Source: Eledone cirrhosa (Eukaryota). Taken from it: a stretch of 64,000 nucleotides of DNA. The position numbers and the translations under genes were made by a program. How positions within the stretch are numbered: the first letter of the stretch is position 1; each line of letters opens with the position of its first letter. Location of the stretch: NCBI GenBank assembly GCA_964016885.1, contig OZ024741.1:391282001-391346000 (forward strand). Reading direction: 5' to 3'. Shown one piece after another: positions 165 to 60,479 of this stretch. A model generated the notes under the pieces. The model was given only the letters and a program-made list of their open reading frames with translations. It was not told where the DNA came from and ran no database searches.

Positions 165-436
165 ATATATATATATGTGTATGTATGCATGTGTGCATAT
201 ATATATGTGTGCATGTATGTATATATACATACTACTGTACGCCTGTATACATATGTGTATGTACGTATACATACATACGTACTTACATTTAAGTAAGTGC
301 CGTACTAAGAGTGAGAAATGAAATTTCGTTTCATTCTATTCCATTTATATATATATATATATATATATATATATATATATATATATATATATATATATAA
401 TATAAGATCAAAAGATGGTTAAAGGAGTTCCATGTA

Positions 437-503
437 TTTTATTATGCGCATTTCAAAAACAAACATCATCATGCAATAATATTTGTGTTTTCATCAGATA
501 AAA
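437..503 (-). ncRNA. Type I hammerhead ribozyme in a ~165-bp island (400-563) between (TA)n tracts
   Basis: ttttat-CTGATGA-aaacacaaat...atgtttgttttt-GAAA-tgcgca-TA-ataaaa: 6-bp stem I, paired stem II and palindromic stem III. Confidence 0.85.
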
Positions 504-606
504 CAGGAGAACATGATATGAAGGCTAAAAAACACTTGTGGATAGTGCAGTTTTAAATCAACATATATATATATATATATATATATATATATATATATAT
601 ATATAT

Positions 607-1625
607 GAAAATAGGGAGAAAAAGACGATTATTAGGAAGAAAAATATATTTCTTTCCTTTAATTTTTTTCTCTTTTTTCTGGGTTAGAAAATGTTTAAAA
701 CAAAATATTTTACTTTGTGTGAAGTGTTAAGTTATTAGTTAATTTATTTATTAATTAACAATGGCATTTATTTATTTATTTATATATTTAATAATTGTCT
801 ATTGCCGCTTTCAGCATTTTATGCATTATGAAAGGGGGGAATTTGTATTGGTGTAAAATGTTGGTGATGTTGAACATGTTAAGGAAATGGGGAAGAAAGA
901 ATAATATTATTTACAAACAAGGTTTTTGAAGTGAAAAGAAAAAAAGAAAAAAAAGGGGGTGATGTGGAACATGATAAGTTAATGGGAAAGAAAAAAGAAT
1001 ATTATTTACAGGCATAGTTCTTGAGGATAAGCAGTTCAAAATATGTTATTATGGCAAGAGCGCTTAGTTGATCCATGATGGAGGCAAATGGTAGTCTGGA
1101 GTTTGATATGATTTCCCTTTTTAGAGAGTTAATATGCAGGGGGAGGTAATTCAGGGTGGTCAGGTAGGGGAGAGAGAAATGAGAGGGGGTTATTCATTTA
1201 TATACGAAAAAGGATTAGGTAGGGTGTAAGGGAGGTAACTCTTTAGAGAACATAGGAATTTGGTTTTGGTTCATTGTTCATTCCAGTTTTAGTTTAGTCC
1301 GAAGTTTAGTCCATTAAGTAGAGGTTGGAATTTGTTAATGAAGTACGTTTCCTTATTGGTACGTTGGATGAAAGAAGCGTTGTCTATGAATTTGTAAATG
1401 GGAAAAATTTTAAAGTTTGGATGTTGGTTAGGTGTACAATTGCACTAAAAGCAATCTTTCTGTATTTCTGTATTTTGATTTGTGATATATGGACGGTCAT
1501 ACGTTGTCGGAAGTTGTTTTTTGTCTGTCCTATGTCTTGACAACCTGAGCAGGTCAAAACATAAATTAGGTTTTCAGATGCACATGTAAAGTTGTGTTTA
1601 ACTGTGAAATATTGTCCTTGTTGTA
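607..1625 (-). mobile_element. Penelope-like element 3' fragment with a decayed GIY-YIG domain
   Basis: Translation [44 protein letters not shown] is close to the ORF at 52745-53896. The 3' tail (607-690) recurs inverted at about 49350-49436. Confidence 0.8.
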
Positions 1626-1900
1626 TACACACACACACACACACACACACACACACACACACACACATATATATATATATATATATATATTTCGTTTCTG
1701 AATTTGTTTAGCAAGATTCTTTATCTGAAATCGTGTGTTGAAACCGATATTGTTATACTTTGGGAGGGTCATGTTGCCAATAAGAAACGTACGCACCAGT
1801 TGCTTTCACTTCAATTTATTATAATAAATTTATAAATTTATAAATTTATAAATTTCTGGTTGGTTGGTTGGTTCCACAACCAGATAGTTGTTTATATATT

Positions 1901-1943
1901 GTCATAGTTCTTTCGTCACACACTCTGTGACCTCTTCAGTGAC
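1901..1943 (-). ncRNA. Minimal hammerhead ribozyme in the family A pLTR (related copies at 9528-9568 - and 56495-56537 -)
   Basis: gtca-CTGAAGA-g-gtcaca...tgtgac-GAAA-gaac-TA-tgac, on the same strand as the ORF. Confidence 0.75.
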
Positions 1944-2144
1944 TGGGGATTCCTTTCTTTGTTTCTGTGCCTCTCCTTTGTTCTGTCCTACGCCATTTTG
2001 TTTCTGTGTGTGTGTTGTGTGCTCAGTCTGCGCATGCGCCACATCCGGGTGTCTGTGTGTGTTTATGTTCATTTATTTATTTGTTTATTTACATGTTACT
2101 GGTTGGTTGTTTGTTCTATGTGTGTGTGTGTTTTCATTTTGTCC

Positions 2145-58760: not shown

Positions 58761-58958
58761 ATTCTTTTAAATATATATATATATATATATATATATATAT
58801 ATAAAAGAAATAGAATTTCGCTTCAAGCATAGCTTTATACAATATGTATAAATATTTCGTATCTCCAAAGAAATACAGTCTTAGGAAGGCGTAGCTATGC
58901 AAACACCGGGGGGGGGGCGAACGCCCTCTGGTGATGTCCAGCAGAAGTAAGGAGGACA

Positions 58959-59002
58959 ACCGTCTATGCATTTCAGGCTTAACTGGCCTTCGTCAGGCCG
59001 GT
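58959..59002 (-). ncRNA. Minimal hammerhead ribozyme
   Basis: accggc-CTGACGA-aggc-cagttaa-gcct-GAAA-tgca-TA-gacggt. Confidence 0.75.
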
Positions 59003-59297
59003 CCCTCCCACCGCTTGCGACTGCTGGACTAGAAGACAGCTGTACTTAACAAAAACAACCACAACAGATTGTCTTGCCCCAGAAAAATTTTTTATAGACT
59101 TTTGACTGAGGAATGTTCTCACAACTAACCAATGGGAGGAGAGAGTGTCCTATGATGCCGAAATTCGTTTGTTCGAATTCATATGATTCCAGTTCCTCAG
59201 AGAAATAACAACCCAACCAGGAGCTGGACATATCGGAGTATTGACGGAGTAAAACACTTTAACAACATGTGTACCTGCCTCTACCACACCAATTCGG

Positions 59298-59352
59298 ACT
59301 GCCTGAAGAGGTCACAGCCAATGATGGTTGTCACCGAAATATATATAGCAGT
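59298..59352 (+). ncRNA. Hammerhead ribozyme
   Basis: actgc-CTGAAGA-ggtcacagcca-atga-tggttgtcacc-GAAA-tatata-TA-gcagt. Confidence 0.85.
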
Positions 59353-59763
59353 ACATCTTTAATAAACGAAGCCAAATTTTAAATATTTGACTTAATTACT
59401 TTATTCCGGGGTAACCAAACCAACCTGCGTACTTCGTCGAGTGCTCCATCTGCATACTGAGGTGTCGGTAAACAACCAACATATACTCAGAATATATATA
59501 TATATATATATATATATATATATATATATATATATATATATATATATATATATATATATATGTATACACAGAGGTGTCCACTGTAAGTTGTGGGGTCTAT
59601 TCTGCATGAAGAACTCGATGTAATCCATATGTTGAAAATGTTGTAGGTTAAGATAAATCTCAGAAAACAATAAAACATTAAATGGAAAACAGAGTCATGA
59701 TATAAGTTAAAACATATATATATATAAAATACACAATTATCAAAGGTATGTGCAAGTCATTTA

Positions 59764-59814
59764 AATGCTGACAATCGTTTCTTCCAAACTTATGTTTGGA
59801 GTCATCGGAGCATT
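59764..59814 (-). ncRNA. HHR with CCGATGA core; inverted partner at 59988-60038 (+); element spans about 59720-60100
   Basis: aatgct-CCGATGA-ctccaaac-ataa-gtttggaa-GAAA-cgattg-TC-agcatt. Confidence 0.78.
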
Positions 59815-60479
59815 ATCAATGTTTGTGCTTTTAATTTTAATTTTAATTATTGTACAATTCTCGTATAATATATGTCGCATCCATTACACCCTGTAAATAC
59901 GAAACTGTTGTTCACACCATCAATATATATGTATCTATATGATTGTTCAGTTGAATAGGAGGTTAATTTATATGTACAAACATTGATAATGCTCCGATGA
60001 CTTCAAACGAAAGTTTGGAAGAAACGATTGTCAGCAATTAAATGATTTGAACATAACTTTGATAATTGTGTATTTTATATTCCTGCTCTCTAAAACACCT
60101 GATGTTCTTACATTGAGCTATTTCTCTTACTGGTAATAAAGTAGTAATAAATTACTGACCTTTCCTGTTTATATTTGTTTATAATATATACATAACTATT
60201 AATAGTATCATTATTATAATAATAATAGTACCAGTAATAAAATAAAGTAACAGTAATACACTGGGTAATTGCTGGCCTTGTGCCTAACGTAGAAACAATT
60301 ATAATAATAATAATAATAATAATAATAATTGTTTCTACTTTGGGCACAAGGCCAGCAATTACCCAGTACCAGTAATGCACTGGGTAATTGCTGGCCATGT
60401 GCCTAAAGTAGAAACAATTATTATAATATATATATATATATATATATATATATATATATATATATATATATATATATAT

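Follow-up and report, generated by a model that had tools for sequence, protein, structure and literature searches.

Hammerhead-bearing ends of Penelope-like elements and tandem retrozymes in the (TA)n tracts of an Eledone cirrhosa genomic window

Introduction

The association between Penelope-like elements (PLEs), minimal hammerhead ribozymes (HHRs) and (TA)n DNA is well documented: nearly all families of the Hydra clade target (TA)n and carry HHRs, and one Octopus family of this clade is listed in the supplement of the same study (PMC8557442). PLE insertions are short (median 128 bp) through 5′ truncation (PMC9977147), and an optional tail on one of two inverted pseudo-long terminal repeats (pLTRs) is already known (PMC8557442; PMC3846280). 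The tail reflects two sites at which the reverse transcriptase (RT) starts, with both strands extended, and HHR cleavage is dispensable for insertion in vitro (PMC11167929). Here we analyze HHR-bearing islands in 64,000 nucleotides of the octopus Eledone cirrhosa (GCA_964016885.1, contig OZ024741.1, positions 391,282,001 to 391,346,000; henceforth the window), and two families of small non-coding retrozymes that lie among them.

For animal retrozymes PLEs have been proposed as likely helpers, with tandem cDNA derived from circles (PMC7229834). Li et al. 2026 (bioRxiv 10.64898/2026.07.22.740005) argue for a PLE origin from co-occurrence and pLTR phylogeny, and offer local amplification as an explanation of the tandem units. 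Which enzyme mobilizes animal retrozymes, and whether their tandem arrays arise by reverse transcription or by satellite-like growth, is the question addressed here. The available text of the Octopus vulgaris annotation mentions neither ribozymes nor Hydra (PMC13282606).

An original prediction, drawn by a model from the sequence of the window, had described about 20 largely unrelated families of non-coding mini-elements, mobilized by co-resident PLEs and present at unusual density. The analysis below leads to a different view: the window is very probably a stack of independent (TA)n insertions made by many endonuclease-bearing PLE families, mostly of the Hydra clade, each with its own pLTR type I HHR, and two retrozymes would use the same machinery.

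Results

Hammerhead motifs between TA tracts

TA tracts make up 17% of the window, itself a small part of a 3.0-Gb genome; PLE-type open reading frames (ORFs), RT fragments of the long interspersed nuclear element (LINE) type and simple repeats are also present. Type I HHRs were sought with a descriptor that demands an intact core (C3-G8 or the U3-A8 covariant), a helix I of at least 4 bp, a helix III that is paired or palindromic, and at most 120 nt for the stem II region. Eighteen sites were found, against a mean of 0.1 (maximum 1) when the unmasked islands were dinucleotide-shuffled 30 times. An earlier version of the descriptor gave 16 sites (0.05 in shuffles), and a version that allowed one core change and applied a stricter stem II score gave 21 (1.8 in 10 shuffles). 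Short-loop descriptors returned 3–11 sites, missing HHRs with a long stem II, and an Rfam scan (E≤10) named no hammerhead among the matches listed (150 of 376), only simple-repeat microRNA look-alikes. A hit density equal to that of shuffled DNA had been set beforehand as the result that would speak against hammerhead families; the density lies well above the controls. Motifs with the conserved type I core and helix order are type I hammerheads, and an origin by chance, for which shuffles provide only 0–1 matches, is rejected.

Of 29 positions at which hammerheads had been predicted, 21 have at most one core change. Fourteen pass the strict descriptor (437, 9039, 14959, 18640, 22668, 22869, 23440, 24090, 24440, 24750, 39192, 40229, 54859 and 59298); at 1901 and 58959 the core is intact and helix I or III imperfect, and five (6197, 22329, 47930, 59764 and 59988) carry a single core change. 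The remaining eight (5064, 6335, 7017, 7784, 11551, 43523, 45790 and 47533) are degenerate or atypical in the window, with intact copies of 6335 and 7017 present elsewhere in the genome. Intact sites also occur at 27148, 29172, 40738 and 40922, which had gone unlisted. The statement that most islands carry an HHR or HHR-like motif was too strong: an HHR-like core is found in 30 of the 65 islands of at least 90 bp that lie between TA tracts.

Most families are the 3′ ends of coding PLEs

The 20 families (named below by position, with the prefix F) comprise 13 PLE 3′ ends (pLTRs), two retrozymes and five families with no parent found. Judged by protein motifs and similarity, ten of the 13 are of the Hydra clade and three are other PLEs. 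The notion of about 20 independent mini-elements is thus rejected, since 13 families join PLE ORFs. The description as non-coding parasites holds for two families (24090 and 7017, the retrozymes), whereas 13 lie directly 3′ of PLE coding sequence; likewise, the islands lack ORFs, as had been stated, but longer copies of the families reach PLE ORFs. That the islands might be truncated autonomous PLEs had been named as the counter-case, and for 13 families they are, the catalogue status of the parents being left aside. Lack of relatedness among families is mostly borne out, with the exception of 24090/7017 (homologous over the whole unit), 5064/22329 and 47930/59764. Other elements of the original prediction hold: PLE machinery stands behind the motifs, and non-autonomous HHR parasites are present in the form of the two retrozyme families.

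Family abundance was gauged by genome-wide counts of exact 22–33-base patterns, for which reversed controls were all 0; these are counts of motifs, not of insertions. They gave 16,532 for F6197, 15,714 for F437, 14,929 for the first retrozyme (RZ1), 5,961 for F54859, 4,240 for F22668, 4,043 for F9039, 2,151 for F39192, 980 for F59764, 676 for the second retrozyme (RZ2), 510 for F59298 and 363 for F14959.

Parents were sought in 20 genomic regions picked for long spacing between paired motifs. In F437, F22668, F39192, F9039, F14959 and F59298 same-strand HHRs 3.5–4.4 kb apart enclose PLE coding sequence, and F6197 forms a 3259-bp unit, HHR to HHR, with a PLE ORF. No PLE coding sequence was present beside the HHR in three regions (L235, L236 and L238). 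In several genomic copies of F54859 an endonuclease tail lies 150–300 nt upstream; in the window copy of F43523 an endonuclease fragment lies ∼450 nt upstream of the motif, and F47930 has a Hydra-type ORF 1.5 kb upstream at one locus (L234). The non-Hydra PLE ORFs of the window end in families 1901, 5064 and 22329. Upstream of F6335, F7784, F11551, F47533 and F58959, the few copies examined contained no PLE ORF.

RT and C-terminal GIY-YIG occur together in single frames of 738–808 amino acids at five loci (L221, L222, L224, L226 and L227), the ORF being broken or partial in the remaining Hydra-clade families. The protein alignment shows the Hydra motifs R-x-R-W, DKT, CxCx5C, CxxC and CxH and a C-terminal endonuclease; RW, DKT and CxCx5C were found in F437, F22668, F39192 and F6197, the other six families being placed in part, by similarity of fragments. 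The Hydra-type proteins are ∼30–60% identical to one another over aligned parts, and in a profile comparison they match the window ORF in which Pfam confirms GIY-YIG (probability 94.9). A homologue search returned 37 proteins, among them one from Argonauta hians (37%); a PDB sequence search with the Hydra-type ORFs gave no match. The ORFs at 20231-21295, 52676-53896 and 2145-5046 have the Neptune-type linker Cx2-5CxxC before a C-terminal GIY-YIG. Of these three Pfam recognizes GIY-YIG in 52676-53896 only, and the Neptune-type label is motif-based.

Two fixed 3′ ends and the origin of short islands

Seven families each have a short and a long 3′ end, located downstream of the cleavage site at +43/+132, +50/+139, +17/+97, +63/+197, +60/+227, +36/+102 and +57/+155. 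Among 190 genomic copies of these families 85 finish at the short end, 74 at the long end and 31 otherwise. A TA tract is met at one of the two family-specific end positions in 159 of the 190, compared with 5–10% of random points; the association with (TA)n, for which enrichment against a control had been called for, is therefore real. The ends are also coupled. There were 48 divergent pairs, 33 of them classifiable on both arms and 15 with an unclassified arm; 32 of the 33 combine one short and one long end. Only two close pairs were convergent. Hydra-clade families thus display pLTRs with an HHR, partial tandem and inverted insertions, and a tail at one end.

The small size of the islands is due to truncation, to solo pLTRs and to head-to-head pairing. 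Solo pLTRs with a fixed 5′ end account for 10 of 30 copies of F437, 13 of 30 of F22668 and 8 of 25 of F9039 (five further F9039 copies, with a short interspersed nuclear element (SINE) at the 5′ end point, were set aside), that is, ∼30–45% of sampled copies. The fixed 5′ end adjoins a T-C-A initiator-like site; we infer that it is the RNA start, reached if RT begins at the 5′ pLTR. In trees that excluded copies truncated within the pLTR and the second arm of each pair, solo and long copies are intermixed: four label changes against 4.9–5.0 in shuffles for F437 (18 rows) and five against 5.3 for F22668 (16 rows), both of low power. Solo and long copies also share identical sequences. There is, then, no sign of independent mini-element lineages in these small trees.

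In five F9039 loci an abundant SINE-like repeat occupies one and the same position immediately 5′ of the HHR. The repeat, which appears similar to SINEs of octopus, also occurs at 13776-13832, 15124-15316, 31185-31361, 32053-32239 and 60237-60424 of the window and apparently inserts at ATT-rich sites.

Two-armed arrays of a 310-bp retrozyme

RZ1 occupies 23933..24917 of the window, where a minus arm (long end at 23933) stands head-to-head with a plus arm (short end at 24917); its HHR cores are at 24126(-), 24446(+) and 24756(+). The 310-bp unit is non-coding (longest stop-free frame 59 codons, 30 from a methionine) and has a circular fold with z = -3.5. RZ2 is a ∼312-bp relative that aligns with RZ1 over the whole unit (score 165; shuffled maximum 44) and, by this full-length homology, is taken to be without coding capacity. 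Its window copy is a minus-strand monomer at 6860..7153 with a G5A change, genomic copies being intact; 303–315-bp tandems occur, four of them among the first 100 matches, with the same two ends as in RZ1. With tandem units within 150–450 bp, a type I HHR in each and no coding capacity, RZ1 and RZ2 can be classed as animal non-LTR retrozymes.

Array statistics for RZ1 come from the first 100 of the 14,929 motif matches, which fall at 16 loci. Unit spacing is exactly 310 in 74 of 74 cases. Ten of the 16 loci are two-armed divergent arrays and none is convergent; arms reach 10 units, and at the junction the spacing ranges between 202 and 465. Both ends could be read in 11 arrays, including the one in the window; in every case one end is short and the other ∼33 nt longer, a split expected by chance about once in 2,000 if ends were independent. 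Nearly all ends abut TA, one array lying in AT-rich non-TA DNA. The arrays are dispersed and are ∼98–99% like the window unit. This two-armed, tailed form favors one-step synthesis of several units by a PLE enzyme, and at the level of insertions our favored reading is that such an enzyme writes multi-unit arrays de novo. The template may be a circle or a multimeric transcript, with both of which the DNA is compatible. As a weak lead to the helper, the ∼33-nt tail is nearer to the 39 nt of the Neptune-type element than to the 66–166 nt of the Hydra families measured.

A third retrozyme of this lineage (RZ3, ∼316 bp, with a U3-A8 core) was found by homology. It lies at L112:1800-3025 and at two further loci (L046 and L047), and also occurs as an inverted tandem array. 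Across RZ1–RZ3 double changes preserve stem II and the 3-8 pair (five of five counted pairs), with a covariation of 0.74 compared with 0.34 in shuffled and at most 0.22 in slid alignments.

Contigs from four sequencing runs cover the RZ1 unit and the tandem joint. Three of these runs are of other organisms, and their near-identical contigs are of low depth, with close relatives, prey DNA or carry-over as possible sources; the contigs are not used as evidence. A literature search, mostly of papers outside subscription, returned no description of inverted, tailed retrozyme arrays and no report of hammerheads or retrozymes in octopus.

Core variants and folding

Several families depart from the canonical core. 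U4A is family-wide in F6197 (16,532 exact copies), F47930/59764 have a U4C core, and F47533 has U at position 9. U4C is a tolerated natural variant (PMC3088659); the string 'U4A' does not occur in the available text of that study. All scored window copies of F5064 carry A13C and its HHR is probably inactive, in line with a dispensable HHR in PLEs. When HHRs are folded in isolation, helices I and II usually form, whereas helix III usually does not. Helix III is usually palindromic, and this, together with its absence from monomer folds, fits the dimer model described in PMC4209133. The genome is in effect a large natural library of HHR variants that standard descriptors would miss.

Density across the genome

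The density of HHRs in the window had been considered its unusual part. It is not: 20 evenly spaced 10-kb stretches of contig C1 contained 25 strict HHRs (0–1 in shuffles), all within the 10 stretches with at least 4% TA tract, where the density is 0.25 per kb as compared with 0.28 per kb in the window. Across this sample HHR number follows TA content (Spearman 0.80). A density peculiar to the window is rejected; it is typical of TA-rich DNA in this genome. If contig C1 is typical, the genome would hold 3.7×10^5 HHRs (bootstrap 1.8–5.8×10^5). Published figures, obtained with descriptors that differ from ours, are 2,000–9,000 minimal HHRs per genome (PMC4209133) and up to 120,000 retrozyme copies in the axolotl (PMC7229834). 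In a family-biased set of 1.05 Mb, 589 intact HHRs fell into 34 clusters, 22 with more than one member.

Arrangement of the window

The first island is a solo pLTR of the Hydra-clade family F437 (400..562, minus strand), with the fixed 5′ end, the short 3′ end and an HHR core at 497. A broken non-Hydra PLE follows (1691..5046, minus); its RT plus GIY-YIG-type ORF is split into two frames (3385-5046 and 2145-3458) and the HHR, predicted at 1901, lies at 1939 on the minus strand, 188 nt past the ORF. F5064 (4953..6166, minus) is a 3′ fragment from the Neptune-type family of ORF 52676-53896, with a degenerate HHR at 5096 (U3-A8 plus A13C). F6197 (6187..6280, plus), a pLTR fragment of a Hydra-clade PLE, bears the family-fixed U4A core and recurs as an inverted pair at 13558-13685. 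The inverted pair F6335 (6327..6485) has a damaged HHR in the window, its genomic copies being intact with a true 3-bp helix III. At the end of an old repeat F7784 (7723..8913, minus) has a minimal-type core whose helix I is unpaired; no parent was found for it, nor for F6335, F11551 (11507..11934, minus, degenerate HHR), F47533 (47338..47733) or F58959 (58804..59040, minus, core intact with a weak helix I). The HHR-like motif of F47533 is accompanied by a 3′ tail ∼74% like that of F14959.

F9039 is an inverted pLTR pair of a Hydra-clade PLE (8926..9221; HHR at 9045(+), stem II region 97 nt). F14959 is a two-armed Hydra-clade insertion (14908..18964) with HHRs at 15061(-) and 18646(+), a 78-nt stem II region and an endonuclease tail at 15522-15746; an unrelated RT fragment (∼16400-17842) breaks up the insertion. 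At 18625-18650 a pyrimidine tract and a CAG terminate at the helix I 5′ strand, an arrangement resembling the intron end that in Penelope of Drosophila virilis was mapped to this helix (PMC4209133). The 5′-truncated Neptune-type PLE of family 22329 (20230..22438, plus; ORF 20231-21295) has a 3′ untranslated region that ends in the HHR at 22333; short fragments of this end lie at 23329-23551, 26972-27190 and 28995-29214. F22668 forms an inverted solo-pLTR pair of a Hydra-clade PLE at 22623..23064 and a second at 40553-41027.

The two-armed Hydra-clade insertion F39192 (39192..40419) has U3-A8 covariant HHRs at 39292(-) and 40240(+), with a ∼3545-bp unit elsewhere. In this family (L227:495-720; window 13345-13477 and 40285-40419) a frame stays open from the tail downstream of the HHR on into the ORF; tail and ORF start may therefore overlap, by analogy with an anole element. 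F43523 is a two-armed Hydra-type insertion (43473..45960) with a GIY-YIG fragment at 44240-44800 and, ∼450 nt downstream on each arm, an atypical HHR-like motif with no descriptor match. F47930 (47745..48140, minus; U4C core) is related to the inverted pair F59764/59988 (59727..60220; U4C cores). The two-armed Neptune-type insertion at 50726..54753 contains ORF 52676-53896 (Pfam GIY-YIG), with a long end at 50726, a short end at 54753 and a tail of 39 nt. F54859 is an inverted pair (54773..54929), several genomic copies of which have a Hydra-type endonuclease tail upstream. F59298 is the 3′ end of a Hydra-clade PLE (59037..59491, plus; HHR at 59303), with a 4348-bp unit in L237.

Other elements also occur in the window. 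A young non-coding element at 9905-11473, tandem and head-to-head between TA tracts, has arms that are 99% identical and no HHR match; it is possibly an HHR-free PLE end (Naiad-like) or some other non-autonomous element. Inverted or direct repeats with no HHR match also lie between TA tracts at 12359-12651, 29674-30645 and 54970-55762. The sequence at 25638-27261 is repeated at 27646-29283 with 98–99% identity; this duplicated composite unit (within 25638-29283) consists of an RT fragment, a TA tract, an F22329 end and an F39192 tail, and may be a recent tandem duplication or assembly redundancy. At 35279-43472 kilobase-long degenerate (TA)n arrays hold embedded PLE and LINE fragments, and the tracts may have expanded after insertion. 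An uninterrupted LINE-type frame of 1068 codons at 60602-63808 (+) encodes endonuclease, RT and a PHD finger (Pfam) and is probably a young RTE-like element.

Discussion

The data can be drawn together as follows. Full units of 3.3–4.4 kb, HHR to HHR, enclose an RT plus GIY-YIG ORF. Insertion into (TA)n is established for the clade and is seen here as flank enrichment. The ends, along with published in vitro work, suggest that both DNA ends of the cut target would be extended on element RNA, with RT starting at either of two fixed sites 33–170 nt apart downstream of the HHR, which would produce head-to-head arms, one short and one long. Synthesis of cDNA would often stop early or reach the fixed 5′ point, leaving ORF-free islands of 100–500 bp. 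The two related ∼310-bp retrozymes would use PLE machinery in trans: circular or multimeric RNA copied round several times could yield a whole tandem array at once, complete with the short/long signature. HHRs with a palindromic helix III would cleave as dimers in tandem transcripts, cleavage being probably essential for retrozymes and dispensable for PLEs.

A number of points weigh against this account. The five families with no parent found imply that more families may be non-autonomous. The 3′ end positions were derived from the same data on which they were tested, and the link of F47930 to a PLE comes from a single locus, with a 1.5-kb gap that contains a SINE. The Hydra assignment was made through motifs and profile similarity rather than a tree with reference PLEs, and the three complete Hydra ORFs go unrecognized by Pfam. 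HHR folds rarely beat shuffles (z < -2 in one of 10), the covariation count draws on three related families only, and helix I was left out of it because MAFFT misaligned the region. No helper PLE or autonomous relative similar to the retrozymes was present in the ∼1 Mb searched.

It could be argued that most families are self-propagating non-coding mini-elements, or solo pLTRs turned SINE-like, with a promoter of their own and mobilized in trans. Two families are indeed non-coding retrozymes, five are without a parent found, and the fixed 5′ end next to the initiator-like T-C-A in F437, F22668 and F9039 is what SINE-like copies might show. Nevertheless we regard this as very unlikely: thirteen families join PLE ORFs, solo and long copies intermix on the trees (albeit with low power) and share identical sequences, and an RT start at the 5′ pLTR of a normal transcript directly yields solo pLTRs. 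A still less credible idea, to which we give almost no weight, is that the inverted pairs are chimeras of assembly or amplification and the motifs chance matches. The region is very repetitive, has kilobase TA tracts and one assembly gap, and inverted repeats can be artefacts; yet shuffles give 0–1 matches, arms stop at two different fixed positions with no extension into the flanks, older pairs have diverged (76–83% at 59727-60075 and 8928-9221), and head-to-head architecture is published for PLEs.

For the retrozymes the alternative is that arrays are satellites, a single unit being inserted and then amplified locally by unequal crossover. This is published as one scenario (bioRxiv 10.64898/2026.07.22.740005), tandem units at one locus are near-identical, and later local expansion of single arrays is possible. 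As a general explanation it seems unlikely, given that arrays are dispersed, that tandem units stand on both head-to-head arms with variable junctions (202–465), and that short and long outer ends are fixed in 11 of 11 arrays, a pattern for which crossover alone gives no reason.

Taking direct writing of arrays by a PLE enzyme as our working view, a bolder picture can be sketched, which we put forward tentatively and with slightly more doubt than belief. RZ1 may be a currently or very recently active circular-RNA retrozyme, for which a dimeric PLE enzyme would prime both target ends at two fixed sites of the circle and copy round it many times, such that head-to-head arrays are born in one step; this would take place in a genome with several hundred thousand Hydra-derived HHRs, including U4A, U4C and position-9 U cores and forms with a ∼100-nt stem II that possibly still cleave. 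The RZ1 signature, together with two exact predicted RT start nucleotides, about 131 and 163 nt downstream of the cleavage site, makes retrozyme mobilization directly testable.

The main claim reduces to known biology, namely HHR-bearing PLE ends in (TA)n. What is added is that RZ1, a young and abundant element, bears an insertion signature described as unique to PLEs, and that a PLE clade which has received little study is greatly expanded in this genome.

As in the Hydra clade of C-terminal EN+ PLEs (Craig et al. 2021, PMC8557442), the elements have RW, DKT, a CxCx5C linker, CxxC and CxH, a single ORF, a (TA)n target, an HHR close to the 3′ end and, frequently, a stem II with a U.U pair at its base. 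They differ from that description in having at least ten families, several with 2,000–16,000 exact motif copies; in unit length (3.3–4.4 kb here, 'generally <3 kb' as published); in tails of 66–166 nt rather than 30–40 nt; and in a stem II of up to 97 nt. The minimal HHRs of PLEs described by Cervera and de la Pena (2014, PMC4209133) are likewise many and heterogeneous within a genome, are mostly single motifs of truncated PLEs, form opposite-strand pairs 100–700 bp apart, and include U3-A8 covariants and palindromic helices III. In contrast, our estimate of 1.8–5.8×10^5 per genome far exceeds their 2,000–9,000 (the descriptors differ), and family-wide U4A, U4C and position-9 U cores and very long stems II are found here.

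Two discrete 3′ ends downstream of the HHR, a tail on one inverted pLTR and extension of both strands agree with the PLE tail (Frangieh et al. 2024, PMC11167929; Arkhipova et al. 2013, PMC3846280); here the ends have been counted in seven Hydra families and a retrozyme, and nearly all classifiable insertions pair a short with a long arm. Animal non-LTR retrozymes (PMC7229834; Li et al. 2026, 10.64898/2026.07.22.740005) share with RZ1 and RZ2 tandem units of 150–450 bp, a type I HHR in each, low GC, the lack of an ORF and coexistence with PLEs. The arrays of E. cirrhosa differ in standing head-to-head in (TA)n and in showing the short/long tail signature of PLEs, and text searches of those two sources show no 'tail' or 'inverted' array description. 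The non-autonomous Chlamys PLEs, such as MRC1 (PMC8557442), resemble the retrozymes in being non-coding and in forming multicopy head-to-tail arrays via PLE machinery. As described there, most of these elements have 3′ sequence in common with an autonomous family and Chlamys elements are mostly without an HHR, whereas RZ1–RZ3 carry HHRs and no autonomous relative was found in the ∼1 Mb searched.

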